Assembly: GCA_963674735.2 (NCBI GenBank)
Contig: CAXXQS010000001.1
Span: 128,001 to 192,000, forward strand
Length of the DNA stretch: 64,000 bases
Direction: 5' to 3'
DNA from: Myxococcota bacterium
GTDB lineage: Bacteria > Myxococcota_A > SURF-8
The position numbers and the translations under genes are program-made. The first letter of the stretch is position 1, and every line of letters begins with the position of its first letter. The notes under the pieces were generated by a model. It did not search any database and had not been told where the DNA came from. It saw nothing but the letters and a program-made list of their open reading frames with translations. Below, piece by piece: positions 1,450 to 31,680 of the stretch.

Positions 1450-2928
1450 ATGTTGGACTGCTGGTTTTTGATCCCTCCCTGCGAGCCTTTTTACAGTATG
1501 GTCGAACTGAGTCTGCCCCAAATGACCGCCTATTTGCGCGGGGCTGGTCGGAAGGTGGCTCAACGCGACCTCAACCAGACCTTTTTACACGAGAAGGTCA
1601 ATGGCGCGGGTTACGACATGCGCCGCTTTGCGGGAGTCGACGCTTTCCCGGCTAATTACCAACTCGATGCCATGGCGCTGGCGGCGCAAAAGCCGCATGC
1701 CTTGTACGAGGATTTCTTCGAGCGCCATTTCCTCGGCGATTTTCGGGAGAATCCGGCGCGTGTACTGGGGTTATCGGTGATCGGCAGTGGGCAGGTGTTG
1801 CCCAGCCTGATTCTGGCGAGGTTGGTCAAAGCCGAATTTCCCGATACGCGCGTGGTTTTAGGCGGTCCCTGGGTGACCACCGGGCGCGACCTGCTGCCGG
1901 AGTTCCTGACGGCCATGCCCATGATCGATGGAGCGGTGGCTTTTCGCGGCGAAGAGGCGCTGGCGACTTTGTTTTCGGCGTTGGACGGCCAAGCAGACTG
2001 GGGCGACATTCCCAATCTGACCTGGCGTAACGGAAATGAGGTGCAGGTCAACGCCATCGAGTCGGGTATTCCGCTCACCGGCTTGCCGCTTCCCGATTTC
2101 AAGGGACTGGATCTCGATGTTTTCCAAACTCAGGCTTTGCCTGTGATGAGTTGTCTGGGCTGCTATTGGGGAAAATGTACGTTTTGCCACCACCATGTGC
2201 GCTGGCCCACGCTTTTTCAGCGGACGGGGGCGGATGTGGTGGATATGATGGAGCAGATGCTGCCGCGTTACGGACGCAAGCGCTTTATCATGGCCGAAAA
2301 CGCGACTCCCCCCGCGCTGATGTGCGAGATGGCCGACGAGATTATCAGGCGTGAGCTCGATGTCGAGTGGGTGACGATGACGCGCGCCGAAACGGCGTTT
2401 ACCGAGGAAGTCTGCCGCAAACTCTACGAGAGCGGCTGCCGCTACCTGTGGGTGGGGCTGGAATCGTCCAGCGAAGAACTGCTGGTGAAAACCCGCAAAG
2501 GTGTGACGTTGGGGATGATGGAAAGCATGATGCGCAACTGTACGGCGGCGGGCATCAAGCTGATTCTGTTCATCGTGGATTTGCCGGGTTTCCCGGCCGA
2601 GGTGTTCAGCGGCACCCTGAAATGGCTGCTCGACCGCGCGGATATCTTTTACCAGGTGTTGGCCCAGCGCTTTCAACTGGCACGCGACAGCCACGTTTTT
2701 CACGACCCGGAGCTATTGGGTTTGCGGATTGCACCGGAGGCTTACACCAGCCTGGACGTCTACAACCTGCCTTTCGAAGGGGTTTTCGCGCGCAGCGAGG
2801 ATCGGTTCTGGCAGGAAGTTCGTCAGTTCGAAATGGATCTCGGCGCGCGGCGTGGGTACCCGACCCCGCATATGTTATTCTGGCCGGAAGCGGAAAATGA
2901 AGGTCCCAAGGGCTGGATACGCATTTGA
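1450..2928 (+). CDS. Cobalamin-binding (class B) radical SAM protein
   Basis: CYWGKCTFC motif; N-terminal B12-binding-like region (VLGLSV...VVLGGP); GLES motif; start placed at ATG 1450 after a GAGAG RBS (ORF track starts at 1399). Confidence 0.8.
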   Translation: MLDCWFLIPPCEPFYSMVELSLPQMTAYLRGAGRKVAQRDLNQTFLHEKVNGAGYDMRRFAGVDAFPANYQLDAMALAAQKPHALYEDFFERHFLGDFRENPARVLGLSVIGSGQVLPSLILARLVKAEFPDTRVVLGGPWVTTGRDLLPEFLTAMPMIDGAVAFRGEEALATLFSALDGQADWGDIPNLTWRNGNEVQVNAIESGIPLTGLPLPDFKGLDLDVFQTQALPVMSCLGCYWGKCTFCHHHVRWPTLFQRTGADVVDMMEQMLPRYGRKRFIMAENATPPALMCEMADEIIRRELDVEWVTMTRAETAFTEEVCRKLYESGCRYLWVGLESSSEELLVKTRKGVTLGMMESMMRNCTAAGIKLILFIVDLPGFPAEVFSGTLKWLLDRADIFYQVLAQRFQLARDSHVFHDPELLGLRIAPEAYTSLDVYNLPFEGVFARSEDRFWQEVRQFEMDLGARRGYPTPHMLFWPEAENEGPKGWIRI

Positions 2929-3001
2929 TATTGATTGTGTGAGTGGTTCCCTCGGAATGCATATTCGGGGGGTGGATGTTGGGTTGAGAAAGGACGGACT
3001 T

Positions 3002-4021
3002 ATGAAGAAGTGGCAGTGGGTATGGATGCTGGGGTTGTGTGTGGCGCTTTGGGCGACGGGTTGCGGATCGGATGACGCGGATACCGATGGCGATGTGGAC
3101 GGCGATTCGGATGGCGAACAAGCCGTTGCGGGGCTTGAATTGATCGGACTGGACGGCTCGACCGACTCGCTCGACTGGGACGCCTTGCAGGAACTGGACG
3201 CCACGGAAGGTCATGGCGGCTGGTTGACCAGCGTCGGGACGATCGTGGGACCGAACGTCTGGAAGGGCGTGTCCGTTGCGGATCTGTGCGACCGCGTGGG
3301 CGGTCTGCCGCAGGGGGCCGGGGTGAAAATCACTGCCAGCGACGACTACGCCATGACGCTTTCGTCCGACCAACTGCTAAACGGTGCGCTGCCGACCTTC
3401 GATCCCGAGTCGGGTGACAGCCTCGACTACGCCGGGGAACTGACCGCCATCATTGCGTATGAACGTGAGGGTGGAGCGATCGGCGACGACGACGGCGGCC
3501 CGCTGCGACTGGCTTTCGTGAGTTCCGAGGCGGATCAGCTGACCGACGGGCACTGGTGGATCAAAATGGTGGCGAAAATCGAAATCCTCGAAATGGGGAG
3601 CGACTGGACGCTCGATCTGGAGGGCGCGCGTGACGAAACGATGGACCGCGCCACCTTCGAGTCGGGGGCGGCGATGGGCTGTCACGGCTACACCTGGACC
3701 GACAGCCACGCCAACGTGTGGAGCGGCATTCCCCTGTGGCTGCTGGTGGGGCGGGTGGACGACGACAACGTGCATGACGAGGAGGCCTACAACCGCGACC
3801 TGGCCGCGCAGGGTTACAGTGTGCGGGTGGTCGGCGACGGGGCGGAAGTCGCGTTCGAAAGCGGTCGGCTTACCGAGAACGACGACATCCTGCTGGCCTA
3901 TCTGATCAACGACGTTCCGCTGGAGGGCGACGAGGCCCCGTTGAAACTGGTGGGTGCCGATCTCGACGCCGACGAGATGCTCGGCGGCATTACGCGCGTC
4001 GTGTTGGAGCTGCCGGAGTAG
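3002..4021 (+). CDS. Lipoprotein with two molybdopterin-dependent oxidoreductase-like domains
   Basis: Lipobox ATGC, DGD linker, duplicated 'W.G(V/I)..','ASDDY','AY...G....GPLRL','WIKMV..I' motifs; start ATG 3002. Confidence 0.7.
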   Translation: MKKWQWVWMLGLCVALWATGCGSDDADTDGDVDGDSDGEQAVAGLELIGLDGSTDSLDWDALQELDATEGHGGWLTSVGTIVGPNVWKGVSVADLCDRVGGLPQGAGVKITASDDYAMTLSSDQLLNGALPTFDPESGDSLDYAGELTAIIAYEREGGAIGDDDGGPLRLAFVSSEADQLTDGHWWIKMVAKIEILEMGSDWTLDLEGARDETMDRATFESGAAMGCHGYTWTDSHANVWSGIPLWLLVGRVDDDNVHDEEAYNRDLAAQGYSVRVVGDGAEVAFESGRLTENDDILLAYLINDVPLEGDEAPLKLVGADLDADEMLGGITRVVLELPE

Positions 4022-7300: not shown

Positions 7301-8728
7301 GAAATTGCGATGTACGATGAATTGGTATGCCGCTTTGGTGGAAGTGAAGAGTGGAGTTTGCGCAATTATGTAGCGTGGGCAATGATAAATAAGGCGGTGA
7401 CATTACAAAATGAAAAGCAGTTAGAATTGGCTTTTTCTGAATATGATGCGGTTCTTGATCGGGTTGCTATTTGGATCGGAGATGGAAAGCTTGATCGTGT
7501 ATGGCAGTTGTTCAAGAGGTCAGGCTTGGATTTTGATATCGATAAATATCTGGAGCCTGACGGGGATTCTGAAGATTTGCCGGATCTGGATTTATTTTTT
7601 AATTCCGATAAGGATGAGATCTTCTCTTATGCTGTTGAAGCGCTGTCTGGCAAGGGAGATATTCTCGGGTTAACTGGGCAAAATCAACAGGCTATTGATA
7701 TTTACGATGAAGTAATCAGTTTGTTAGATGGCCGAGACGAGGACAATTTATTAAAGATATTTGCCTGGACCTTGGTGAACAAGGGAGTATCGCTGGGGCA
7801 ACTCAACCGCCCAGACGAGGAACTGGCGGTTTACGATGATGTGATCGCGCGTTTCGGCTCACGTGATGAAGTGGCGCTTTTGGAACAGGTGGCGAAGGCT
7901 TTGATTTATAAGGGGATTACGCTGGGTCAGCTTGGCCGCTCGGACGAGGCCTTGGCGGTTTACGAGGATGTAGTCGCGCGTTTCGGCTCTCGTGATGAAG
8001 CGGTTCTTCTGGATCCGGTGGCGTCGGCCCTGGTGAACAAGGGAGTTACGCTGGGTCAGCTTGGCCGCTCGGACGAGGCCTTGGCGGTTTACGAGGATGT
8101 AGTCGCGCGTTTCGGATCACGTGAGGAATTGGCGCTTCTGGAGCAAGTGGCGAAGGCCTTGGTGGGCAAGGGGGTTACGCTGGGTGAGATCGGCCACCCG
8201 GACGAGGCCTTGGCTGCTTACGAGGATGTGATTGCGCGTTTCGGCTCACGTGATGAAGTGGTCTTGCTTGAGCAAGTGGCGACGGCGTATAACGGGAAAG
8301 CATGGGGGGTGTATGAATCGCGCCAGGATGAAAAGCTTTCCGACGCCATTGTTTTTGGTCAACGTGCTCTTGAATTGCAACCGGAGGAAAACTGGTATCG
8401 GCACACGCTGGCGTCCGTGTTGGGCCTGGTGGGCCGCTGGCCGGAAGCCCTGGAGCAGGCGCGCCATTTTGTCGATGATGAAACGCTGGTTGAGCAAGCT
8501 CTTGACGATATCGTGGATTTCTTCATCTTGGCGGCGGCTTCGGGGCAGGCTGGGCTTGCGCTCGATGGGTTGCTTGGAACGAAAAGCGCGGCCGCCCGGC
8601 CTGCTTTACCCCTCGCGCTGGCCATGAGCCTCGGCCAACAACCCGATGCAACGCCGGAGCTTCTGGCCGCCGCCCGCGAGATCGTCACCCGAATCGAAAC
8701 CCGCAAGGCCGAGCTTGCGCAGATGTAA
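4316..8728 (+). CDS. NLR-like multidomain protein: class III nucleotide cyclase-like + CHAT/caspase-like peptidase + STAND NTPase + TPR
   Basis: VLLVDVEGFT...GDG...LRMGIVLGDV...AAR (cyclase); FFYGHG...VVFAC (His/Cys dyad); PFVGR, GRGGLGKT, LWLLDDL (STAND Walker A/B); C-terminal 43-aa TPR repeats. Confidence 0.8.
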   Translation: MMQVTHVPVLLVDVEGFTTHSVPERRTILRRLQEKLTDCARFFMPLGDPWDKWTRHGTGDGYYFIFDGLGKDAALVAMEYARRLEEAFFRYNAEEAEGLPLRLRMGIVLGDVETVDDQFNSEVMCDAARFVDDPEFKNYFAGLSTATGLIVSQHFYSEWREAARKDKQEIFAASRDLSFSPVRIVDKHGRPYEGRVLGSGWTAEPAREEVKPRLKILMLIGCSVEERLPEAIEMAREAASEWMASGLHVDVRVDQASVAAIRREAKREPDWLFFYGHGSEDGRLQFADGLKSYEEIGQHDTFWKRLKLAVVFACHGRQFAENLPGPWLAFDGPVWREAPKGLMRVLVEQLASKPVGEALKPALAACREEMTSDFVDLLRRSDEQEPAIPLPSEIVPKGEPIITRLNAGIAGHANVEFKIGSVTYPAHDPFVGRVAMLKKMLELPGGAKDVSDRNVRWLCGRGGLGKTALMQEAALCAQNLVFHEDGEPLYVFLMSCHEITELKQLNEELGRRLAGHYGLDLPEPSVDAVLKELGKQPKARHLWLLDDLTYITPRRDQKDDATRFVDDLKFRAGNAALTLALRVSTRQDAPAHLGPLPIAPLDPLDARELAECVYRRSAQTSPDRQPDYAGALKLFHLVGQSTALYKLSLILAADNQRSFGEHAKRLSEQGSLEGMDIEELAAKMIQVEVESLGAMEQRLQFDFKAFMPCLYDIILRAGSIKIVDADEWETDLENWFGDRLNRSGQANGTRRVYRNGLEYLVRLGLLALEARPHADPAYTLPPNQRLAIKALRQCRDEAVQSMPWRALKSRSLLLFEQAMANPELALAEVEQEYNEYEPYFDEDPTTALAVIDHFIDVGIYGDFKEKPELECDVYDTAINHFERREEVPVKKMVIKALNRKGRWLNENKRPEEAVQVHDEVLRRIDELEKDGLLADSQVEPPEKGRDSDDVDSLIALLDEPSLSTSEIAEAKLHEMASSSLLGKGLAYDKLKDYENEIAMYDELVCRFGGSEEWSLRNYVAWAMINKAVTLQNEKQLELAFSEYDAVLDRVAIWIGDGKLDRVWQLFKRSGLDFDIDKYLEPDGDSEDLPDLDLFFNSDKDEIFSYAVEALSGKGDILGLTGQNQQAIDIYDEVISLLDGRDEDNLLKIFAWTLVNKGVSLGQLNRPDEELAVYDDVIARFGSRDEVALLEQVAKALIYKGITLGQLGRSDEALAVYEDVVARFGSRDEAVLLDPVASALVNKGVTLGQLGRSDEALAVYEDVVARFGSREELALLEQVAKALVGKGVTLGEIGHPDEALAAYEDVIARFGSRDEVVLLEQVATAYNGKAWGVYESRQDEKLSDAIVFGQRALELQPEENWYRHTLASVLGLVGRWPEALEQARHFVDDETLVEQALDDIVDFFILAAASGQAGLALDGLLGTKSAAARPALPLALAMSLGQQPDATPELLAAAREIVTRIETRKAELAQM
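7772..8287 (+). repeat. Four tandem 129-bp (43-aa) TPR repeats
   Basis: LVNKGV.LGQL.R.DE.LAVY.DV.ARFGSRDE..LLEQVA.A four times; copies 1 and 3 start at 7772 and 8030 (2x129). Confidence 0.9.
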
Positions 8729-8758
8729 GGGACGCGGGATTGCGAAACCGCACCGCCC

Positions 8759-10501
8759 TCAGGCTTTGTCCCAGCCGCCCGACTTGCGCAGGCTCTCGAC
8801 CTCTTCCTCGGCAAGCTGCTTGATTTCCACGTAGTCCGTTTTGGCCACGCGGTTGAGCGGCAGGCCCATGGGTTCGAGGATCACGTAATGACTGGGACGC
8901 ATGTAAGCCGCCAGCCCTTTGGCGTGCGCCTGCAATTCTTCGACCGTCAGCTCCACGTCGGCCTGCGGTTGAATGTAGGCCACGATTCCCTCTGAAAACA
9001 CCTCGTGCTCGACCCCCACCACGCCGCAGGCGGCCACTTTATCGGCCAGCTCGCAGAAGTGGTCCTCCACCTGCGCCGGAAACACCTGGTAGCCCTTGGG
9101 TTTGATGACGTGCCGGGCGCGCGCGGCGAAATGCAAGCCCTTGTCGTCCACATAACCCAAATCGCCGGTGTAGCAGGTGCCGTCTGTGGCGATGGTCTGG
9201 GCGGTGGCTGAAGGGGCGTTGACGTAGCCGAGGAAGGTTTGCGGACCCTTGAAGCAGATGTGTCCCACTTCCCCGCGCGGCTTTTCCTCGCCGGGCGAAC
9301 CGTCGGCGTTCATGCGGTGGCGGATGGTCAGCGGATACACCGGCATATCGTAGCCCACCCCCGCCAGGATGTCGTCCACCGTGCCGTCGAGCGGGCTATA
9401 GGTGCAGAATCCGGCGGTTTCGGTCAGGCCTAGTCCGGTGCCGAAGCCGGGAGCCATTTTCTTCAGCTTCTCCAAAAACTGCCGCGAAACCTGCTGCCCG
9501 CCGTAAAGCGCGAAATCGAGGCTGGAGAGATCGTACTGGTCGTAATTGGGCAGCCGCCACTCCAGGTTGAACAGCGCCGGGATCTGCCCGAAGCAGTTCA
9601 CCTTGTAATCCTGAATGGCCTGGAGGGTCTTTTCGGGGTCGAAGATGTGCAGGATGACGGCCGTCTGCCCGTAAAACATCACGGTCATGAGTTGTTCGGT
9701 CTGGCAGCCCACGTGCGAGGGCGGCAGATTGACCAGCATGCGCGCGTTTTCGCGGATATCGAAGGCCGCGCCCAGGCACATGGTCTGGCAGGTGATGTTG
9801 CGGTGCGATAACAGCGCGGGCTTGGGATAGCCGGTGGACCCGGTGGTGAAGATCACCAGCGCGCCGTCGTTTTCGTCGATGGCGGCGTTAAAGGCTCCGA
9901 AGCGCTTCAACAGATCCGATTTTTCGGGCTTGGCCAGCGCTTTTTTGGCCAGCTTCTTCGCTTCTTCGGCGAGGACGAAGGCCGAGGTCGCGCCCTTGAT
10001 GGTGTCGCCGGGGGCGGCGAATTGGATGAAATGCTTGACGCTCGGGCAGTTGGCCATCACGGCGCGGCCCAGTTCGCTGAAATCGGCCACCGGGGTTTTA
10101 CCCAAAAACGCATAGCCCTTGGCGGAGACGAGGTTGACGCTGCGCACCACTTCCGGACCCTTGAGCCGCAGGTCCAGCGGGACGGCGACGACGCCGATTT
10201 TGAAGCAGGCGAATTCGAGAAAGATGTGTTCCGTGAGCAGCGGCAGCGAGGTGGCCAGGTAGTCGCCTTTTTCGAACCCCAGCTCGACCAGCTTGAGCGC
10301 CAGCGCCGTGGTGGTCTGGTCGAAACGCTGCCAGGTGATTTCGTCTTTCGTATCGGCGTTGATGAAGGCGATGCCCTGCGGGCTTTCTTTGGCCCATTTC
10401 GCGACCAGACCGTGCAGCAGGTGGCGGTCGGCGTAGTCTTTGTCGAAGTGGTCGAGGGTCATCTGCGGTACGCCGTTGCGTGTTTCGTACGAAATGCTCA
10501 T
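8759..10501 (-). CDS. Acyl-CoA synthetase / AMP-binding enzyme
   Basis: FTTGSTGYPK, GLTET, TGDLG, P..VE and C-terminal K motifs; ATG 10501 with GAGG RBS. Confidence 0.9.
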   Translation of the reverse strand: MSISYETRNGVPQMTLDHFDKDYADRHLLHGLVAKWAKESPQGIAFINADTKDEITWQRFDQTTTALALKLVELGFEKGDYLATSLPLLTEHIFLEFACFKIGVVAVPLDLRLKGPEVVRSVNLVSAKGYAFLGKTPVADFSELGRAVMANCPSVKHFIQFAAPGDTIKGATSAFVLAEEAKKLAKKALAKPEKSDLLKRFGAFNAAIDENDGALVIFTTGSTGYPKPALLSHRNITCQTMCLGAAFDIRENARMLVNLPPSHVGCQTEQLMTVMFYGQTAVILHIFDPEKTLQAIQDYKVNCFGQIPALFNLEWRLPNYDQYDLSSLDFALYGGQQVSRQFLEKLKKMAPGFGTGLGLTETAGFCTYSPLDGTVDDILAGVGYDMPVYPLTIRHRMNADGSPGEEKPRGEVGHICFKGPQTFLGYVNAPSATAQTIATDGTCYTGDLGYVDDKGLHFAARARHVIKPKGYQVFPAQVEDHFCELADKVAACGVVGVEHEVFSEGIVAYIQPQADVELTVEELQAHAKGLAAYMRPSHYVILEPMGLPLNRVAKTDYVEIKQLAEEEVESLRKSGGWDKA

Positions 10502-21676: not shown

Positions 21677-24600
21677 ATGGCGAAAACGAAAACCCAAGCG
21701 ACGAATCAAATAACAGCCACCCGATCGGGTAAGGACAAAGGCTTCGTCATCGAGAAGCCGGTCAAGCTCTTGAATAAGCAGATAGGCATTGATACGAAAA
21801 AATTCTTTGTGCATGTCGGCCAAGCGGCGGCAGCATTTATCGGTGGTGGCCCTTCAAGCTCAATACCGAAATTATTGGAAGCCGCCTCTGCTTTCAGCTT
21901 AAAGACAACACCGGAAGAACGCGCCTGGGTGTTGGTGCAACGTTCGATGGGACGCGCCCTGAAAGATCTCGTGGAAGAACAGGTCGGCGAACTTGATCTT
22001 GAACGTCTTGAACAAGCGGTGGAGATTGCCGATAAACTCGATTACGGGCTTGAAACTGAAACCGTCGAAATCGACACCCGGTTTTTCGACAATCCCGGCG
22101 CGTGCAGGTATGTCGAGATGATGCGGCCCGTTTTCGAAAGCTGGCTACTCGCCAGCGGCATGGATTCGGCTCGGGCGGAAAATACCGCACGGCGGCTGCC
22201 GTCCTTTTTTAACTCTGCGATCCATCACGAGTTGTATGAAAATGCGGGCAATTACGCCATGATCGTTGAGGCTTTCGACTCCCTCGCTTTCACGGCTGTT
22301 CAGCACGATGCAGATTGGCGGCGCTACCGGGCCAAACTGATGCGGCAAGTGGAAGAAAGCATGCTCGGCGAAGCCTTCGGCCTGAAGGATATCTTTATCG
22401 AGCTTCGGGCTTACTACAAGGAATCCGCGAAAACGAAAAACGAACCCCCATCCAAGCGACTTCTTGCACGCGATATGGACGATGAGAATGATAAGAAGGA
22501 AACGCGACATGTCGTCGATTTGCACGACCACGTTCGCTCCTGGATTGAACAAAGAAGCCAAAAGGATGCATTACGAGTCATCAGTGGTGGGCCCGGCAGC
22601 GGGAAATCTTCGTTTGCCAAAATGCTGGCGGCCGAGCTGGCGGCGGAAAATCGCCTTGTGCTATATATTCCCTTGCACAACATGAATCCTAAAAGCGACC
22701 TCGCCGATTCGGTCGGGGATTTCCTGCATGAGTATGACGACTTCAGGGAGAATCCACTCAGCGTTCCGCAAAGCGACCCGATCGTGCTGCTTTTCGATGG
22801 CTTGGATGAGCTGTCCGAGCGCGGCCGCGCCGGGTATGAGGCCGCCAAGCAATTTATCGAAAAACTGCTGGTGAAGCTGCACCAGAAAAATGATCAAAAA
22901 TGCCAGTGTCAAGCCTTGGTGCTGGGGCGGGATCTCTCGATACAGGCGCAAGATTATTTCTTGAAGAAGGAAAAGACCCTCCATTTATTACCTCTTTGGA
23001 TGACGGAGAAGGAACGTGAGACATTTGTCGATAGGAGAAAGAGACTTGAACACGACTTTCGGCTGGATTGGTGGGCGGCCTATTGCCGCTTGATGCAACA
23101 CGTTGATCCCGAAATGCCGGAATTCTTGAGGCGGGAAGAGCTGGAGGAAATCACGGCGGAACCTTTGCTCATTTACTTGGCGGCACAAACCTTTTTTGAT
23201 GAAAGAATCGATTTCACCCAAACCGTTAGTGTTAACCAGATTTACGGAGCCATGCTGGAATATGTTTGGGAGCGTGGATATGAAGGCCGTCAAGAAGGTC
23301 GGCGGCACAGAGTGATCGATGAATTTGAATTGAAACAAGAGGAATTCACGGCGATCATGCAGGAGGTGGGTGTGGCCGCCTGGCAGGGCCAGGGCCGAAA
23401 AGCCACAACCGAGGCGATCCATCAGCGTTGTGCCCCCAGCCTACAAAAAAAGTTCGAGCGCTTCGCCGATGACGCGCAGAGCGGCGTTTTGCGATTGCTC
23501 ACCGCTTTTTATCTGCGGCGCACGGCCGAGGACCGCGGCGACAACGTGATCGAATTCACGCACAAGAGCTTCGGTGAATATTTGACGGCAAGAAGGATCG
23601 TGCGGCAGTTGTACACCATGGTTGAACAATTGAAAATGCGTGAGCAAGATCAATATGGAAACAATGGTTGGGATGCGGCGGAGGCTTTGTGTAAATGGAT
23701 CGAGTTGACGGGGCCGACCGCCATGGATCGCGATCTTTACCGTTTTGTCGATCGTGAAATCGAATTGGATTATAAGCGCGATCCGGAAATGATCGAGAAT
23801 TGCCAGGAACAGATCGTCAAGTTGATGAACGTTCATCTTCGATACGGCATGCCGATGCAGGATTTGAAACCACGCCTTCCAAAATATCAGGAGGAAACGC
23901 GGCAGGCCAGAAACGCCGATGAAGCCCTGCTGGCCCTTCATTGTGCATGTGCGAAAAGAACGGGAACGTTAAGCCAAATCAAGTGGCCGGAGAAAACGAG
24001 CGCCGGTGCGTGGCTGAGTCGCTTGCAACCTCAGCGATTGGACCTAACAACCACATTAGCTTATGACTGTTTCTCGGATTTGGATTTTTCGCAGCAATGT
24101 TTTGATTTTGCCAATTTCTATAGGGCAAACATACAAAGAAGTAAATTTACTCTATGTTTTATGCTTTTTGCTTCGCTTGTAGATTGTCACGCTTTAAAGG
24201 CACATTTGGAGGTCGCAAATTTATTTGAAGCAAAAATGAAACGCGCGAATTTAAAAGGCGCGTATTTGGATGGTGCGAATATGATTCGCGCGAATTTAAG
24301 TGATGCAAAATTGAATGGTGCGAATTTAAGGGATACAAAATTGAATAGTGCGAATTTGAGAGGCGCGAATTTAAGGGATGCAAAATTGAATGGTGCGAAT
24401 TTAAGGGATGCAAAAATGGGTTACGCGGATTTGGGTTACGCGGATTTGGAAGGCGCGGATTTGGAAGGTGCGCAATTGGAAATCGCGATTTTGGAAGATG
24501 CGAATTTGAGCGATGCGAATTTGTGGGGTGCAAATTTGAGGGATGCGAATTTGAGGGACGCGAATTTGGAAGGCGCGAATTTGGTAAACGCGAATTTGGA

Positions 24601-24739
24601 ACGTGCGAATTTGGGACGCGCGGATTTGAGCGGCGCGGATTTGAGAGGCGCGAATTTGGAAGGCGCGAATTTCGAGGGTGCGAATTTGACCGGCACCATT
24701 CTGGATAAGAAGCGCAAGCCCCGAAAAAGCACCGACTAG
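21677..24739 (+). CDS. NACHT-like STAND NTPase with C-terminal pentapeptide repeats
   Basis: GGPGSGKSS, IVLLFDGLDE, PLL, FTHKSFGEYLTA; A(N/D)LxG repeats. Confidence 0.88.
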   Translation: MAKTKTQATNQITATRSGKDKGFVIEKPVKLLNKQIGIDTKKFFVHVGQAAAAFIGGGPSSSIPKLLEAASAFSLKTTPEERAWVLVQRSMGRALKDLVEEQVGELDLERLEQAVEIADKLDYGLETETVEIDTRFFDNPGACRYVEMMRPVFESWLLASGMDSARAENTARRLPSFFNSAIHHELYENAGNYAMIVEAFDSLAFTAVQHDADWRRYRAKLMRQVEESMLGEAFGLKDIFIELRAYYKESAKTKNEPPSKRLLARDMDDENDKKETRHVVDLHDHVRSWIEQRSQKDALRVISGGPGSGKSSFAKMLAAELAAENRLVLYIPLHNMNPKSDLADSVGDFLHEYDDFRENPLSVPQSDPIVLLFDGLDELSERGRAGYEAAKQFIEKLLVKLHQKNDQKCQCQALVLGRDLSIQAQDYFLKKEKTLHLLPLWMTEKERETFVDRRKRLEHDFRLDWWAAYCRLMQHVDPEMPEFLRREELEEITAEPLLIYLAAQTFFDERIDFTQTVSVNQIYGAMLEYVWERGYEGRQEGRRHRVIDEFELKQEEFTAIMQEVGVAAWQGQGRKATTEAIHQRCAPSLQKKFERFADDAQSGVLRLLTAFYLRRTAEDRGDNVIEFTHKSFGEYLTARRIVRQLYTMVEQLKMREQDQYGNNGWDAAEALCKWIELTGPTAMDRDLYRFVDREIELDYKRDPEMIENCQEQIVKLMNVHLRYGMPMQDLKPRLPKYQEETRQARNADEALLALHCACAKRTGTLSQIKWPEKTSAGAWLSRLQPQRLDLTTTLAYDCFSDLDFSQQCFDFANFYRANIQRSKFTLCFMLFASLVDCHALKAHLEVANLFEAKMKRANLKGAYLDGANMIRANLSDAKLNGANLRDTKLNSANLRGANLRDAKLNGANLRDAKMGYADLGYADLEGADLEGAQLEIAILEDANLSDANLWGANLRDANLRDANLEGANLVNANLERANLGRADLSGADLRGANLEGANFEGANLTGTILDKKRKPRKSTD
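24240..24700 (+). repeat. Pentapeptide-repeat array (15-bp units GCG(A/G)ATTT...)
   Basis: Repeated ANL/ADL units; AT-richer codon usage. Confidence 0.9.
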
Positions 24740-25775: not shown

Positions 25776-25881
25776 GGCGGAGCGCAGCCCCACCGACCTG
25801 ACGGGGGGTGTCAAGTCGGCTTGACAGGCGACCGACAATCTTGTCGTTTACGGCAATGTTAACAAATAATCATCTCAATAA

Positions 25882-25894
25882 AATCAATGGCTTG
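25882..25894 (+). promoter_or_regulatory. Putative IHF site
   Basis: AATCAATGGCTTG matches WATCAANNNNTTR, with AT-rich 5' flank, upstream of the -24/-12 element. Confidence 0.55.
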
Positions 25895-25918
25895 CGGACT
25901 TCCCTAAAGCGTGTAAGA

Positions 25919-25935
25919 TTGGCTTGTCTTTTGCA
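25919..25935 (+). promoter_or_regulatory. Putative sigma54 (-24/-12) promoter of the rSAM/lipoprotein operon
   Basis: TTGGCTTGTCTTTTGCA: GG-N10-GC spacing. Confidence 0.65.
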
Positions 25936-26001
25936 ATCCATGTCAGACGCCAGAACTCGTGACAGAAACGGCGGGTTACTCCCGCTTCAAAGTGAGACGT
26001 G

Positions 26002-27135
26002 ATGAAGGTTATTTTACACCTCACGAAAAACTGCAATCTGCGTTGCCGCTACTGCTACGCGCCGGAAAAAGTAGACGAGCCGATGTCGCTGGAGGTGGCG
26101 CAAAAGGCCATCGATTTGGCCATCGAAACCGGCAAAACCAGCGCCTGCGTGTCGTTTTTCGGCGGCGAGCCACTGCTGCTTTTCGATCGCATGCAGGAGT
26201 TGACCGCCTATGCCGAGGCGCGCGGCGAAGAGAGCGGCACGGCCATGTACTTCCGGCTGTCCACCAACGGCACGCTGTTCACCGAAGAGAGCCTGGCTTT
26301 CTGTCGCGACCACAAAATTCTATTCGCCCTCTCGCTCGACGGCGACCGCGAGGCGCATAACGCCCAACGCGTCTTTCCCGACGGCACGGGCAGCTTCGAT
26401 GTCCTCGACGCCAAGCTGCCCATGATCCTGCATTACAACCCCTACACCGTCGTAACCAGCGTCATCACGCCGCCGACGGTGGGGCGCCTTTACGAATCGA
26501 TGGAGTATCTCTGGTCGCGCGGCCTGCGCTACGTCGTGCACCAACTCGACTATACCCATCCCGACTGGACCCCCGCGCATTTCGAGACGCTGGCGGAAAG
26601 CTACCGCAAGCTGGGTGCGTTTTACCTCGACCGCATGCGGGCGGGCGAGCGCTTTCATATGGGGCTGTTCGACGACAAGCTGAAGTCGCACACCCGCGAG
26701 CCGATCCGCTACGGGGCGATCTGCGATTTCGGGGCGAGGAAGGTCTCGGTGGCCCCCGACGGCACGATTTTCCCCTGCGTGCAGTTCGTCTCCGACCGCG
26801 ACGACGCCAAGCGTTACGCTATCGGACACGTGGAAAGCGGCTTTACGCCCCGGCGTCAGGAATTGATCACGCTCAACAAACGTCCGCGCCGTCCCTGCGA
26901 CAGTTGCGCCTTTCTGGGACGCTGCGCCAATTACTGCGGTTGCATGAGCTGGCAGTTGACCGGCCACGTGCTGGAAGTGCCGCCGATTCTATGCAGTCAT
27001 GAACGCATGCTCATCCCCATCGCCGACGAGCTGGGAACCCGCTTGTGGGAGGAGCGTAATCCGACGTTTCTAAATAAGCATTACAAGCATTTGCATCAGA
27101 TGATCGATCCGCAATCCCGGTATGCATTCGATTAA
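26002..27135 (+). CDS. Radical SAM/SPASM domain maturase
   Basis: CNLRCRYC, FFGGEPLL, STNGT, SLDG; SPASM C...G.IFPC...CDSC(x5)C(x3)CGC...C; no N-terminal RRE; start ATG 26002 or GTG 25999. Confidence 0.92.
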   Translation: MKVILHLTKNCNLRCRYCYAPEKVDEPMSLEVAQKAIDLAIETGKTSACVSFFGGEPLLLFDRMQELTAYAEARGEESGTAMYFRLSTNGTLFTEESLAFCRDHKILFALSLDGDREAHNAQRVFPDGTGSFDVLDAKLPMILHYNPYTVVTSVITPPTVGRLYESMEYLWSRGLRYVVHQLDYTHPDWTPAHFETLAESYRKLGAFYLDRMRAGERFHMGLFDDKLKSHTREPIRYGAICDFGARKVSVAPDGTIFPCVQFVSDRDDAKRYAIGHVESGFTPRRQELITLNKRPRRPCDSCAFLGRCANYCGCMSWQLTGHVLEVPPILCSHERMLIPIADELGTRLWEERNPTFLNKHYKHLHQMIDPQSRYAFD

Positions 27136-27145
27136 GGGGGCTGCC

Positions 27146-28678
27146 ATGTCGCACACACCATTCAAAGTCAAACCCGTCAAACGCTATGGCGGGGCGCGTT
27201 ATCACTCGGAAGTCGGCACGGAGTTGACCGCGCGCGCCTGCTGGCTCTCGGCCATTGCCCCGGCCAAACTCGTGCGGGGAGCCGTGACCTTGCTTCTGGC
27301 CGCCAGTCTGGCACTGGGCGTGATGGCCTGCGGTGACGACACCACCATCCACATCAAACCCGGTGGCGGGGAGAACGTCGACGGCGATACCGACAGCGGC
27401 GAGTCGGGCGGAACGCCGCCTCCGCTGTTCTGCCTGGAAGAGGGCCTGATTTTCTGTGCCGATGAGGATAACGTGTGGTCCTGTGAAAACGGACTACCGG
27501 TGAAACGGGATTGCGACGAGGTCTGCCGGGAGGAACGCGGTTCCGAATATTACTCGATCCGGTGTGATGATGACGATCCGGAGGATCTGTGCCGCTGCAC
27601 CTACGACATTATGGAGGGCGAACCGGCGGAATGTGTGCCGGGAGACCTGCGCTGTCGCGACATATTCACTGCCGAAACGTGTTCGGACGGTTATTACGAG
27701 GCCATCAACTGCGATGTCTATTGCCAGGAGAACTACGGCTGGGAATACTATTCGATTGGCTGCGACAATGACAACCTCGACAATGCCTGTCAGTGCCAAT
27801 ATGGGATGACCGACGGCGAGGGGGTGCAATGCGAACCGGGAGACGTTCAATGTCGCAATGATAACACGGCTAAATTGTGCCCCAATTACTCTTATGTGGA
27901 GGTCGATTGCGATCTTTACTGCCAGCAAACTTACGGTTCGGATTACTACTCCATGGGCTGTGATGCCAATACTCCCGAGAACGTCTGCCTGTGCGAATAC
28001 GGTGTGACCGACGGCGAGCCGGCGGAATGTCAGCCGGGGGAGGCGTATTGTATCGATAACGACGAGATCGCCGTTTGCTCGGCGGACGACTACAGCTTCC
28101 ACCTCGAATTCTGTTCCGATTACTGCCGGACATATTACGGCAACGATTATTACTCCACCGGTTGCTATGAAAGCAACTACGACAATCCCTGCGGTTGCGA
28201 ATACGACATCGTCGACGGCGATATCGCGGAATGCTATGTCGGTGAAGAGGCCTGTGCGGCGGAGGGTGGCTTGTTGATGTGCATTCCCTATGGCGGGGAT
28301 GTGCCCGAAGGCCACGAGGGCGAAGCGGGTATGTGGGAATCCATCAGTTGCGACAGCTATTGCGTGGAGACCTACGGTGACGACTATTATTCGCCGATAG
28401 GTTGCCAGGCCGACGATCCGGACGACAACGGCGAGTTGTGCAGCTGTGAATACGGCGCGTTGGACGGTGTCGCGCCCAACGAATGCCTGCCCGACGAGGC
28501 TTATTGCGACCCCGACGACAACCTTGTGGCCTGCGACGGCGGAGAAGGCTGGGGCTATTGGGTCACCCAAAACTGCACGGACGCCTGCGCGGCGCTCGAT
28601 CCGCCGATGGTCTCCACCGGTTGCGACGCGGAAAATGCGGATAATCCCTGTTTGTGCGCCGAAGACGAGGATCGATGA
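27146..28678 (+). CDS. Leader-bearing Cys-rich repeat lipoprotein A (six 8-Cys modules); putative rSAM substrate
   Basis: 62-aa N-terminus ending in lipobox VMAC; six ~66-aa modules joined by C.Y(G/D)..(D/E)G(E/D/V) linkers; 10 nt after the rSAM stop. Confidence 0.85.
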   Translation: MSHTPFKVKPVKRYGGARYHSEVGTELTARACWLSAIAPAKLVRGAVTLLLAASLALGVMACGDDTTIHIKPGGGENVDGDTDSGESGGTPPPLFCLEEGLIFCADEDNVWSCENGLPVKRDCDEVCREERGSEYYSIRCDDDDPEDLCRCTYDIMEGEPAECVPGDLRCRDIFTAETCSDGYYEAINCDVYCQENYGWEYYSIGCDNDNLDNACQCQYGMTDGEGVQCEPGDVQCRNDNTAKLCPNYSYVEVDCDLYCQQTYGSDYYSMGCDANTPENVCLCEYGVTDGEPAECQPGEAYCIDNDEIAVCSADDYSFHLEFCSDYCRTYYGNDYYSTGCYESNYDNPCGCEYDIVDGDIAECYVGEEACAAEGGLLMCIPYGGDVPEGHEGEAGMWESISCDSYCVETYGDDYYSPIGCQADDPDDNGELCSCEYGALDGVAPNECLPDEAYCDPDDNLVACDGGEGWGYWVTQNCTDACAALDPPMVSTGCDAENADNPCLCAEDEDR

Positions 28679-28755
28679 CGGGTTCAGCCGGGACGCTCAG
28701 TGTGGATGGGTGAGCGGAGCTTGTAGACGGAGCGAAAAAGTAAAGGAACGCTGAT

Positions 28756-29745
28756 TTGTCACGCGATACATTCAAGCTGAAGCCCGTCAAACGCTATCAC
28801 GGGGCGCGTTATTATTCGGAAATGGGTCTCACGCTCCAGGCGCGCGCCTGCTGGCTGTCGACGATCGTCCCGGCCAGGCTTGCGCGGGGGGCCGTGACCT
28901 TGCTGCTGGCCGCCGGTCTGGCCTTCGGCGGTATGGGCTGTGAGGGGAAGTTAATCGAAGAAGTCGAACCGGACGGGGATCTGCCGCCCGTCAACAACGG
29001 AGTTTGCGAAGAAGGCGAAGTCCGATGCAACGATGAAACAACGGTCGGAGTCTGCCGCGATGGCCGTTTTCGGTTTCTGACCTGCAATAAATACTGCAGC
29101 AAATTCGTCAGTGATGAATATACCAGCCAAACGAATCGCTGTAGTGAAAGTGATCCGGAAAATCTGTGCAGTTGCGGTTTCGATTTCACTATCGGCGATG
29201 GAGAACCGGTTATGTGTAGGACCGGGGATATTATTTGCCACGAGGAGCAGACCATCGGAATTTGTGACAACCGCAATTTTTATCAATATACGGATTGCGG
29301 CCAATACTGCGAAGACAACTTCGGCAAAGGCTTTTGCCCCACCGTTTGCAAGGCCGACCAACCGGACAATCTCTGCGGTTGCCGCTACAACATCACCGAT
29401 GGCACGGCGCAAGAATGTGCGCCGGGATCGATCCGCTGCATGGACGATCACTATGGAAATAAAGATTGGGTGGGAATTTGCGTCGAGGGCCACTATCAGT
29501 ATCAGAAGTGCAAAAGCTATTGCATTGAAACGTTTGACCCCGGTTGGTATCCGCGCGATTGCGATGCCGACAAACCCGACGATTTTTGCGGCTGCCATCA
29601 AAAGACCGCGCCCGACGGGGATGAAGATACGGGAACGAATTTAGACGGTGACGCCGATACCGAATTGGAAGATGAGACGGATTTGGACGCGGAAGCGGGA
29701 TCCGAAGAGGATAGGGATACCCAAAGCGAAGCCGGGGAGTTATAA
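28756..29745 (+). CDS. Leader-bearing Cys-rich repeat lipoprotein B (three modules, acidic tail); paralog of A
   Basis: TTG start with AAGGA RBS; 44/62 identity to A over the leader/signal; lipobox GMGC. Confidence 0.85.
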   Translation: MSRDTFKLKPVKRYHGARYYSEMGLTLQARACWLSTIVPARLARGAVTLLLAAGLAFGGMGCEGKLIEEVEPDGDLPPVNNGVCEEGEVRCNDETTVGVCRDGRFRFLTCNKYCSKFVSDEYTSQTNRCSESDPENLCSCGFDFTIGDGEPVMCRTGDIICHEEQTIGICDNRNFYQYTDCGQYCEDNFGKGFCPTVCKADQPDNLCGCRYNITDGTAQECAPGSIRCMDDHYGNKDWVGICVEGHYQYQKCKSYCIETFDPGWYPRDCDADKPDDFCGCHQKTAPDGDEDTGTNLDGDADTELEDETDLDAEAGSEEDRDTQSEAGEL

Positions 29746-29790
29746 TACGCGATAAGTCGAAGCCGTGAAACCTACGCCGGGAGGTGCGTG

Positions 29791-31680
29791 ATGAAACGGA
29801 TGATGATGTCGGGATTGTTGCTGCTGCTGTTGCTTGTTGTATTGGCGGCTTGCCTGGGTACCGAAGAGACGGTCAGCGGTAGCGACGGTGACGACCCCGA
29901 TGGCGATGACCCGGACGGCGACGACCCGGATGGCGACGACCCGGACGGCGACGAGCCGGATGGCCCCTGCGAAAAGAATTTCGACTGCATCCCCTCTCAA
30001 TATTGCGATTTCTGCGCGGCGTCCTCCTGTGCCAATTGCGACGACTGCCTGGCCCTGTGCGTGGATCATGGCTGCGGTACCGAGACGGAGAATACCTGCG
30101 GTCGGCCGCGCTCGGACTGTGTGGCGGGGCAGGTGTCGGTGATTCGCGACGGCTGCTGGGTCTGCGTCGACCGTGAAAGCTGCGCCTTTGTGCGTGATGC
30201 CCGCTGCGACGACGGCCTGCCGCTGCAGTGCAACAGTCCCACCCCCGAATGCGCCGCCGATGAAATCCTGGCGCATCAGCAAGGCTGCTATGTCTGCGTC
30301 AATCCCGATAACTGCGATCCGTGGAAAGAAACGGAGTGCGAAAGCGACCGCGATTGCTCGGCCGCCTACTACTGCGAAGAATGCTCCATGTCTTCCTGTC
30401 CGGACTGCGAGGACTGCATCGCCGGTTGCTGGCCGCATCTGTGTGAAACGGAATACGAGTTGCTGTGCGATATGGAGCGCCCCGCCTGCGGCGACGAAGG
30501 CGCGTCGGTGATTCGCGACGGTTGTTGGATCTGTGTGAATCGCGACAGCTGCGAACCGATCAACGGTGAGCACGATCCGAGTTGCGACGATGGCAGCGAG
30601 CCGTTATGCGACATGGTGGAACCGGTTTGCGACGGGCACGAAATCTTGGCCTACCGGAATAGCTGCTACCTCTGTGTCAATCCGGCTACCTGCGAGCCCT
30701 GGGGCGTGCCCAACTGCGCCGGCGATACGGATTGCCCGGTCGACCAATGGTGCAATGGCTGCGGATCGTCCTCCTGCCCGATCTGCGCCGATTGCGTGGC
30801 GGCCTGTGTGCCCCACGGTTGCGAAACGCAACCCGAAGCAACCTGCGATATGGCGCGCCCCGACTGCGGTGCAAGCGGTGTGGCGGTGATTCGCGACGGC
30901 TGCTGGATCTGTGTGAACCGCAGTACCTGTCAACCCACCGGCGGACACGATCCGAGCTGCGATGACGGCGCGCCGGTGACCTGCAACAGTCCGGCCCCCG
31001 AGTGCGGAACGTATGAAATTCTGGCTTATCAGGATGGCTGTCACGTCTGCGTGAATCCGGCCACCTGCAAACCCTGGGGTCAGGCGGGATGCGAGCACCA
31101 GGCCGATTGTCCGGTGGAGGATTACTGCGATCCTTGCGGCACCGCACCGTGTCCCGACTGCGATGCCTGTCTGCCCGCCTGCATGCCCCATGGTTGTCAG
31201 ACCGAGGCCGTGGCCACATGCAAAATGATGCGTCCCGATTGCGGGTTGGGAAAGGCGGCGGTGGTCAAGGACGGCTGCTGGGTTTGTGTGACCCTGGGCT
31301 CCTGTTCACCCACCCGCGACGAGCATTGCGACGACGGTACCGATCCTATTTGCAACATGGTCGAGCCCACCTGCGGCGAACATGAGATTCTGGCTTACCA
31401 GGATAACTGCTATGTCTGCGTCAATCCGCTCACCTGTAAACCCTGGGGGGAAAGCGGCTGCACGCACGACTATGATTGCGACGCGGCGCTTGCCTGTGAC
31501 GGCTGCGCGACCTCCTCCTGTCCTCTATGCGGCGATTGCGTGGCCGCTTGCGTGCCGCACGGTTGTCCCACCGAACCGGTTCCCGCCTGCTACATGATGC
31601 GTCCCGATTGCGATGCGGGCCAGGTGGCGGTGGTGCAGGATTTGTGCTGGGTCTGCGTGGACGACCAAACCTGCCAGTAA
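29791..31680 (+). CDS. Very Cys-rich repeat lipoprotein C (about 4.5 copies of a ~125-aa unit)
   Basis: Ordinary signal peptide with lipobox LAAC; (DGDDP)n linker; repeated SSCP.C.DC, RDGCWVCV, CDDG, EILAY, CVNP.TC.PWG. Confidence 0.85.
   Translation: MKRMMMSGLLLLLLLVVLAACLGTEETVSGSDGDDPDGDDPDGDDPDGDDPDGDEPDGPCEKNFDCIPSQYCDFCAASSCANCDDCLALCVDHGCGTETENTCGRPRSDCVAGQVSVIRDGCWVCVDRESCAFVRDARCDDGLPLQCNSPTPECAADEILAHQQGCYVCVNPDNCDPWKETECESDRDCSAAYYCEECSMSSCPDCEDCIAGCWPHLCETEYELLCDMERPACGDEGASVIRDGCWICVNRDSCEPINGEHDPSCDDGSEPLCDMVEPVCDGHEILAYRNSCYLCVNPATCEPWGVPNCAGDTDCPVDQWCNGCGSSSCPICADCVAACVPHGCETQPEATCDMARPDCGASGVAVIRDGCWICVNRSTCQPTGGHDPSCDDGAPVTCNSPAPECGTYEILAYQDGCHVCVNPATCKPWGQAGCEHQADCPVEDYCDPCGTAPCPDCDACLPACMPHGCQTEAVATCKMMRPDCGLGKAAVVKDGCWVCVTLGSCSPTRDEHCDDGTDPICNMVEPTCGEHEILAYQDNCYVCVNPLTCKPWGESGCTHDYDCDAALACDGCATSSCPLCGDCVAACVPHGCPTEPVPACYMMRPDCDAGQVAVVQDLCWVCVDDQTCQ
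29884..29963 (+). repeat. 15-bp coding tandem repeat (DGDDP) x5
   Basis: Read directly from the sequence. Confidence 0.85.

Follow-up and report, generated by a model that had tools for sequence, protein, structure and literature searches.

A radical SAM/SPASM enzyme beside tail-bearing exported lipoproteins: a candidate pre-export protein-maturation cassette in Myxococcota and other phyla

What does a radical S-adenosylmethionine (SAM)/SPASM enzyme act on when it lacks the usual RiPP recognition element (RRE; RiPP, a peptide made on the ribosome and modified after translation) and the genes following it encode large, Cys-rich lipoproteins with a long common N-terminus? The question is raised by a 64,000-nucleotide stretch of contig CAXXQS010000001.1 from a Myxococcota bacterium (hereafter the window; the source genome is 94% complete), in which four genes encoding the enzyme and proteins A, B and C follow each other on the forward strand with short gaps. 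The intergenic spacing of 10, 77 and 42 nt is operon-like, and at the first junction the TAA of the enzyme gene (27133-27135) is followed by a GGGGG ribosome-binding stretch and the ATG of protein A at 27146. We consider it fairly probable that enzyme and lipoproteins make up a two-gene protein-maturation cassette, in which a leader guides the modification of A and B before their export. The pairing of the two genes is observed in gene order, in co-occurrence, in the conservation of an N-terminal tail and in the lack of other conserved genes; the docking of the tail on the enzyme is predicted in silico, and from these we infer a modification, its site and its chemistry.

The initial annotation, made from the letters of the sequence, had described the first gene as a radical SAM/SPASM gene without an RRE, 10 nt before two lipoproteins, and this description is borne out. 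The CxxxCxxC motif of the enzyme already stands at residues 11-18 (C11, C15, C18), and therefore there is no room for an N-terminal RRE. Pfam reports Radical_SAM (1.5e-15) and Fer4_12, and its SPASM model gave no report at E <= 0.01. The SPASM cysteines C241, C259, C299, C302, C308, C314 and C331 are invariant in 31 relatives, with C312 kept in at least 90%; the SAM-cluster motif together with this C-terminal pattern of 7-8 Cys for two auxiliary clusters places the enzyme in the radical SAM/SPASM superfamily. A further motif, H-E-R-M-L-I-P-I-A-D, is kept across its clade. When the profile of the 31 relatives was compared with solved structures, CteB, the SCIFF maturase (5WGG, 5e-65), was the best match and anSMEcpe (4K37, 3e-41), an anaerobic sulfatase-maturating enzyme (anSME), the second. 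The part of CteB that aligns comprises the radical SAM core and the SPASM domain, but the two enzymes differ at both ends: CteB starts with 98 residues that are left unaligned and have no counterpart in the window enzyme, whereas the latter carries about 40 extra C-terminal residues (339-377), a clade-specific extension, the CteB and anSME alignments stopping at profile positions 339 and 311, respectively.

Among the curated NCBIfam models PapB ranked first, followed by the nif11-type, CcpM, QhpD, CXXX-repeat and SCIFF maturases, and none exceeded its own cut-off on the window enzyme. The assignments that were tried were consequently rejected: PapB (NF047865) scored 204.4 bits against a cut-off of 340, and the RRE expected of that family is also absent; QhpD (TIGR03906) scored 136.3 bits against 453; the CrpC-type model (TIGR04463) scored 53 bits against 525, its N-terminal domain being absent. 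The same holds for two of the families that had been named at the outset for comparison, since the radical SAM/lipoprotein pair TIGR04133/TIGR04134 gave 30.1 bits against 425 for the enzyme and, for TIGR04134 (cut-off 39.8), no match in the window, and the anSME model (TIGR03942) gave 79.8 bits against 349. No formylglycine-type sulfatase was found among the PF00884 proteins of the genome: there are four of these (504-750 aa; three start with hydrophobic, membrane-like stretches, as judged by eye), and none has a C/S-x-P/A-x-R site in a plausible context. PapB was also the best NCBIfam match for all seven further family enzymes that were scored (198-250 bits, all below 340), and the enzyme family is therefore one without a curated model.

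Proteins A and B are paralogues (BLASTP 2e-60, 39% over 294 columns) whose first 62 residues are about 70% identical. The long common N-terminus in front of a signal helix and lipobox, and the tandem 8-Cys modules joined by a recurring motif, had both been noticed initially, and both are real. Four parts can be distinguished in the N-terminus: a basic tail (with F6, P10, Y14 and Y19), an amphipathic stretch, a hydrophobic helix and a lipobox-like Cys62. The n-region of about 40 aa is unusually long, and V-M-A-C and G-M-G-C are only lipobox-like by eye; a Cys is present at or adjoining the lipobox column in 9 of 9 leaders. Behind the leader an acidic linker leads to the modules, each of about 66 residues with 8 Cys. 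The 50 Cys of A are thus distributed as one in the leader, the lipobox Cys62 and six times eight in the modules, and B has 27 Cys, its three modules holding 8, 9 and 8. Aligned with one another, 83 modules taken from 23 proteins show practically no variation in the Cys columns; the modules begin with C-x-P-G-[D/E]-x-x-C, the D/E four residues past the first Cys being present in 63 of 78 aligned modules, and end with C-x-C-E-Y-[G/D]-x-x-D-G; the junction motif reads Y-[G/D]-x-x-D-G-[D/E]. The AlphaFold2 model of A has a mean predicted local distance difference test score (pLDDT) of 81.8 and a predicted template modelling score (pTM) of 0.27; it contains a helix at 40-56, its modules are mostly above 90, and the linkers at 156-159, 222-226, 288-291, 355-360 and 439-444 are below 50. 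No solved fold in the PDB matched this model at E <= 0.001, the best being other Cys-rich repeat proteins with a TM score of 0.1, and the protein atlas gave matches only below 0.9. Pfam and NCBIfam searches returned nothing meaningful for A, B and C, or for nine partner proteins from other phyla.

Enzyme and leader occur together, which is what the initial annotation had expected. Of the order's 10 genomes, 7 are matched by a hidden Markov model (HMM) of the leader, and an enzyme orthologue (58-68% identity) is present in these same 7. In the three genomes without the leader, enzyme matches reach only 29-31% (two incomplete genomes) or 41% (genome G007), and the 41% relative is followed by a lipoprotein with a variant tail. 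Thirteen leader genes were found in the order, nine of them adjoining the enzyme and four unlinked, each of the latter in an enzyme-bearing genome. At one locus (G009:C33:17300-18429; L017 1983-3133) the enzyme orthologue is divided between two overlapping frames (residues 1-240 and 237-377), either by a frameshift or by an assembly error, and the leader protein that adjoins it is intact. Among 401 sampled genomes of the phylum, strong leader matches are confined to those 7; the other 12 matches have E values of 0.001-0.01 and fall mostly in the signal-helix part of the profile. Searched against 1.84 billion representative proteins, the leader profile gave 25 matches only, one of them spurious (P0016, a eukaryotic immunoglobulin-repeat protein), and a metagenome search with a single leader sequence found no relative. 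Among 28 leader proteins F6 and Y19 are the sole invariant columns.

The pairing extends well beyond the order. Scanning genomes and metagenome contigs with the enzyme alignment gave 160 loci, whose neighbouring open reading frames (ORFs) were screened by eye, with a regular expression and with a small HMM, and a quick maximum-likelihood tree was built for 98 relatives. The window enzyme falls into a clade of 28 (Shimodaira-Hasegawa-like approximate likelihood ratio test, 95) with members from Myxococcota, Bacteroidota (Saprospiraceae), Planctomycetota (Planctomycetaceae), Krumholzibacteriota (Krumholzibacteriia) and unassigned metagenome contigs. Each of the 28 is flanked directly, upstream or downstream, by a tail- and signal-bearing partner, in most cases with a lipobox Cys. 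Of the 14 members of the neighbouring clade nine have such a partner, including two Akkermansia metagenome-assembled genomes (MAGs); two of the others lie at contig ends and none was seen in three. The Paenibacillus PapB-like enzyme stands far off in the tree. In the window the tail reads F-K-V/L-K-P-V-K-R-Y-x-G-A-R-Y, and across the family hydrophobic-x-hydrophobic-x-P-hydrophobic-basic-x-Y-x-x-[A/P]-basic-Y-[P], usually ending in [R/K]-Y-P outside the order; it is the sole element conserved across all partner subfamilies and phyla. An all-against-all BLAST of the 5-kb surroundings of 37 tail-type loci detected nothing in common but the enzyme, an antisense shadow ORF and the partner subfamilies, which agrees with the initial remark that a dedicated peptidase or exporter is lacking.

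In four relatives the tail is followed immediately by a Tat-like (twin-arginine translocation) R-R-x-[F/V/L]: in the partners at L036 3972-4751, L041 5564-6004, L043 5542-5964 and L120 41-433 the Y-P of the tail runs into T-R-R-x-[F/V/L]. This suggests that part of the family may be exported by Tat and not by Sec.

The tail is also the part of the leader that is predicted to bind the enzyme. The co-fold that the initial annotation had in view, carried out with the enzyme (31-row alignment), residues 1-44 of A (28-row alignment), SAM and three 4Fe-4S clusters, passes with a score of 0.85, compared with 0.00 for the best of 3 controls. The mark that it passes was reached by 58 of 80 solved complexes and by 2 of 110 mismatched pairs, counts that are only a rough guide here because the alignments and ligands were of our own choosing. 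Between runs, at least 77% of contacts are in agreement, and the partner pLDDT does not fall below 57. Residues 3-23 of the tail are predicted to contact enzyme residues 189-194, 230-234, 298-304, 326-335, 339-350 and 361, most tightly where tail residues 8-11 meet 299-304 and 328-335, around C299, C302 and C331, and where Y19 meets D342, G345, T346 and W349; neither the SAM-cluster motif (11-18) nor GGEP (54-57) appears among the listed contacts. The model thus supports binding of the tail, in the manner of leader-type docking, on a surface that would replace the missing RRE. A solved leader complex exists for CteB, in which the leader is bound to the RRE that the window enzyme lacks; it is therefore less likely that the co-folding model merely reproduced a known structure.

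In the cassette that we propose, the cytoplasmic, RRE-less enzyme would recognise the N-terminal tail ahead of its partners' export signal, and the SPASM (auxiliary cluster II) region, together with the C-terminal extension, would receive the docking tail as an additional strand, with the invariant Tyr19 packing against the invariant Asp342. Radical chemistry on the tethered pre-protein would precede export, by Sec or, in some relatives, by a Tat-like route, and signal peptidase II would then remove tail and signal in one step. Because signal peptidase II would take both together, no dedicated protease or exporter would be needed; such removal is not universal in the family, since the partners of some relatives lack the lipobox Cys.

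As to the chemistry within the cassette, one tentative proposal is that a Cys-to-Asp/Glu thioether would be formed where each module begins with C-x-x-G-[D/E]. It fits because the nearest characterised families by HMM (PapB, QhpD and SCIFF/CteB) are thioether formers, because the PapB target motif matches, and because CrpC modifies a protein. We give the same cautious weight to a reaction that needs no Cys and would take place in the flexible Y-D-x-x-D-G-[D/E]-[I/V]-A linkers, for example epimerisation or the making of a C-C or C-O link, and what remains falls to a modification elsewhere in the pre-protein.

Several observations weigh against modification of the modules, and some against the cassette as such. 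While the cargo of most partners in the window's order consists of 8-Cys modules, a second cassette in a sister genome, at L016 with the enzyme gene at 2155-3285 and the partner at 3352-3954, has an enzyme that is 56% identical and carries an acidic, Tyr-rich cargo without any Cys past the lipobox, and the same absence of Cys is seen in the G007 partner and in P0008. The partners from Saprospiraceae, Krumholzibacteriia and Planctomycetota have a common, different globular domain ending in W-[L/A]-K-x-Q-G, other partners have only 40-90 residues of low-complexity cargo, and some, as mentioned, have no lipobox Cys. In addition, P0017, P0019 and P0020 carry an unrelated globular part behind the leader. 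Since the cargo behind the tail differs completely, the 8-Cys module as such cannot be the conserved target, as far as can be judged from the sequences, and the repeats, each of which the initial annotation had taken to be modified, are weakened as candidates by a cargo that appears to be swappable; since the cargo is not conserved, no target residue can be named. Furthermore, the modules are predicted to fold as compact domains, as would be expected of ordinary extracellular disulfide domains that need no radical chemistry; the D/E past the first Cys is absent in 15 of 78 modules; and if the first Cys were taken up by a thioether, an odd number of Cys would remain per module. It should also be borne in mind that the co-fold score expresses the confidence of a model and is no measurement.

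One cargo element may nevertheless serve as a lead. The sequence [hydrophobic]-x-[D/R/G]-G-[D/E]-[I/V]-A, which in A is the module junction, recurs in several otherwise unrelated partners, and the motif [LIVMT][DRGEA]G[DE][LIVMP][AGV] is about 20-fold enriched in partners (22 in 13,267 residues of 45 partners, compared with 36 in 456,002 residues of 1,043 other ORFs). It is a lead only: the motif occurs in 16 of the 45 partners and is absent from 29, it was defined post hoc, and the rows are non-independent, all of which counts against it as a general target.

The globular domain found outside the window's Myxococcota order deserves a description of its own. It is common to the partners at L033, L034, L035, L037-L039, L036, L115, L117, L149, L032 and L118, has an S/T-E-x-E-A-x-x-I-I helix near its start and C-terminal [D/E]-[F/Y]-[I/L]-x-W-[L/A]-K-x-Q-G, and matches no Pfam or NCBIfam model.

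If the cargo is replaceable, the tail could be a portable tag that marks a protein for modification before export, served across phyla by RRE-less SPASM enzymes with a new docking surface to which SPASM domain and C-terminal extension both contribute, placed before Sec or Tat signals, fused to unrelated cargo, and used for a Cys-independent chemistry. Candidate reactions would then be epimerisation or a tyrosine-centred cross-link. We regard this broader reading as doubtful, though worth stating.

The same diversity of cargo brings in the main rival explanation, namely that the tail itself is the substrate. Y19, the tyrosine of Y-P in the relatives, or a neighbouring residue would be modified in the cytoplasmic n-region and the cargo would be irrelevant, with the consequence that export would be marked, timed or gated, or that a modified signal-peptide fragment would be made. 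The tail alone is conserved across partner subfamilies and phyla, Y19 is one of just two invariant columns, and in the Akkermansia relatives Y-P is followed directly by the signal helix and by a short Pro/Lys-rich cargo with no common motif, which all favours this explanation; so does the behaviour of RRE-less relatives such as anSME, in which the motif that is recognised is the motif that is modified. The co-fold points the other way, as it places the tail on the auxiliary cluster II cysteines and the C-terminal extension (298-304, 326-335, 339-350) and lists no contact with residues 11-18 or 54-57, which resembles docking, though the model may miss a catalytic pose; besides, a lipoprotein would lose its tail together with the signal peptide. 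On balance we hold modification of the tail to be unlikely, less so than the two explanations that follow. In one, the tail would be a tether or regulator, the membrane-bound pre-protein recruiting or controlling an enzyme whose true substrate is a third molecule. Binding is indeed predicted and turnover is not, and cargo diversity would be easily explained if the cargo were never touched, but no third conserved gene is found within 5 kb at the 37 loci, all close characterised relatives are peptide or protein maturases, and a tail that is lost with the signal peptide would be a short-lived tether. We therefore regard this explanation as highly improbable.

The other explanation is that the enzyme acts elsewhere, on a sulfatase under anaerobic conditions or on an unlinked peptide, and that the lipoproteins are bystanders. 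The architecture is anSME-like (about 375 aa, no RRE, SPASM), anSMEcpe is the second-best solved structure, and at one relative, L043, a formylglycine-type sulfatase gene (7397-9061, with C-T-P-T-R) lies 280 nt downstream of the tail-type cassette, which may be a coincidence or a link with sulfatase maturation. Set against these points, the anSME model stays at 79.8 bits where 349 are required, the four PF00884 proteins of the genome show no plausible modification site, L043 also has a tail-bearing partner directly upstream of its enzyme, such a partner adjoins the enzyme in every one of the 28 clade members across phyla, and the co-fold passes. This is the least probable of the explanations that we considered, and only a slight chance is left to it. 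The leader-guided maturation of A and B thus remains our preferred reading.

How does the proposed cassette relate to known systems? Its logic matches that of CrpABC, QhpCD and the anSME-sulfatase pair. The anSMEs, which are likewise SPASM enzymes lacking an RRE and about 370 aa long, act on a protein in the cytoplasm ahead of its export; the cassette differs from them in that its partners are not sulfatases. QhpD is reportedly a SPASM enzyme that forms Cys-to-Asp/Glu thioethers in QhpC, a leader-bearing subunit of quinohemoprotein amine dehydrogenase that is later exported, and the Qhp system is said to have a dedicated protease and exporter, its product being an enzyme subunit. TIGR03906 aligns along the whole window enzyme (1.2e-39), but the QhpD model has an N-terminal extension of about 95 residues, and no qhp genes were recognised among seven scanned neighbours, in which no family search was aimed specifically at such genes. 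The TIGR04133/TIGR04134 systems resemble the cassette in name only, as radical SAM enzyme plus lipoprotein. CteB serves as an RRE-bearing reference structure in the Crp paper (PMC13692751, in the sections available).

The closest published analogue is, in our view, CrpABC (2026). In Methanococcus voltae, CrpC modifies a 28.8-kDa protein whose paralogue has the same N-terminal 47 residues (PMC13692751, available sections). As in the window, a SPASM enzyme adjoins two proteins with a near-identical N-terminus (47 aa in Crp, 62 aa here) and divergent repeated Cys motifs with an acid or amide acceptor (C-X-X-Q/D in Crp, C-x-x-G-D/E here); the product is a protein and not a peptide, and those sections assign no protease or exporter (PMC13692751). 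The likeness is one of logic, not of sequence: in both, paralogous substrates start alike and contain Cys motifs in repeats. Crp is an archaeal system whose enzyme, a member of TIGR04463, carries an RRE, and the available parts of the paper describe no export signal (PMC13692751). In the window, by contrast, the leader comes before a lipoprotein signal, the tail is predicted to dock on the SPASM domain and the C-terminal extension, and there are related cassettes with Cys-free cargo. The novelty of a "RiPP-like system" claimed at the outset was consequently overstated, since the same logic is described in an archaeon (PMC13692751). PapB, the enzyme of the freyrasin ranthipeptide, is promiscuous for leader-tethered sequences, and its PapA leader is expected to bind the RRE domain as in other RiPP maturases (PMC9413430, discussion and accessible parts). 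It is the best NCBIfam match and its C-X3-D/E target motif recurs at the module starts; the cassette differs by the missing RRE, by exported lipoproteins of 329-510 aa in place of a short peptide, and by paralogous cargo that is in part Cys-free. No description of the enzyme family, of the RRE-less docking surface, of the tag before a Sec/Tat lipoprotein signal or of swappable cargo was found in the full-text literature, in which the supplements of PMC13692751 list bacterial homologous clusters that might include this family.

Protein C had been included in the initial annotation as a third Cys-rich lipoprotein that follows A and B. Its presence is correct, but its membership in the system is not retained. 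An ordinary short lipoprotein signal, without a leader, is followed in it by five repeats that are about 125 aa long and have a C-x-x-C-x-x-C core apiece, and BLASTP (E <= 1e-3) detected no relative of the protein among ORFs of at least 150 aa at the related loci. It was therefore rejected as a third substrate and is probably a bystander. On the flanks, Pfam and NCBIfam identify cysK upstream and a MaoC-like dehydratase downstream; cysK was rejected as a system part, being absent from the families common to the 37 loci. Among the seven proteins of 21.7-32.7 kb that were scanned with Pfam and NCBIfam there is no sulfatase, peptidase or exporter, as initially stated. The promoter-like site at 25841-25870 is only a 9/12 consensus match, and no terminator-like site exceeded shuffled controls. 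The coordinates are collected in the table below.

Features of the locus, in window positions
Feature	Position	Strand	Basis or remark
Radical SAM/SPASM maturase without RRE, 377 aa	26002..27135	+	ORF 25999/26002-27135, ATG at 26002
Protein A, leader-bearing lipoprotein, 510 aa, six 8-Cys modules	27146..28678	+	No Pfam or NCBIfam match
Tail of protein A (aa 3-23, with F6 and Y19), predicted docking segment	27152..27214	+	Co-fold interface, conservation
Signal helix of A (aa 40-56 in model) and lipobox-like V-M-A-C ending in Cys62	27263..27331	+	AlphaFold2 model, by eye
Six tandem 8-Cys modules of A (aa 96-510), flexible Y-[G/D]-x-x-D-G-[D/E] linkers	27431..28675	+	Sequence and model
Protein B, 329-aa paralogue, same leader, three modules, acidic C-terminal tail	28756..29745	+	Sequence
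Protein C, Cys-rich lipoprotein, 630 aa, 95 Cys, five repeats	29788..31680	+	Adjacent; probably outside the system

Further observations were made in the window and at the loci that the enzyme alignment retrieved. Upstream in the window, a gene at 21677-24739 (+) encodes a STAND-type protein of 1020 aa in which an NNH3 helical domain and a NACHT NTPase domain are combined with a long series of pentapeptide repeats at the C-terminus. In clades more distant from the window enzyme the neighbours are of other kinds. In a sister clade of radical SAM enzymes (Campylobacterota, Thermodesulfobacteriota and an Asgard MAG), 5 of 6 members have behind the enzyme a soluble protein that is small, at 124-166 aa (L049 7118-7492, L062 7146-7577, L127 3328-3717, L140 3353-3838 and L066 7171-7671), and G-G-[I/L]-x-x-P-H-x-H...E-[I/V]-x-L is common to those of L049, L062 and L127; to judge from these sequences, this may be another undescribed enzyme-substrate pair. 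In a Fibrobacter clade (L048, L052, L053, L061, L063, L068 and L128, from Fibrobacter and rumen metagenomes) the proteins encoded after the enzyme are Lys-rich, measure about 100-165 aa and lack a signal, and some of them contain G-Y-P-x-x-P.

What would such a cassette add to the known range of these enzymes? Radical SAM/SPASM enzymes are mainly known for small modified peptides, and the whole exported proteins among their substrates are few: the sulfatases, QhpC and CrpA (2026). If our reading is true, a new family in at least five phyla, including gut Akkermansia, would be added to these, with neither of its genes covered by a curated model. The substrate would be recognised without an RRE, by a tag fused before the export signal, and a housekeeping signal peptidase would act as the RiPP protease. 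The paralogous pair of cassettes, one with Cys-rich and the other with Cys-free cargo, renders the chemistry directly testable, and if the tag is independent of its cargo, it could be used to steer radical chemistry onto chosen secreted proteins. Should the tail be portable, then Myxococcota, Bacteroidota, Planctomycetota, Verrucomicrobiota and others would possess a general class of protein modification before export that has not been recognised so far.

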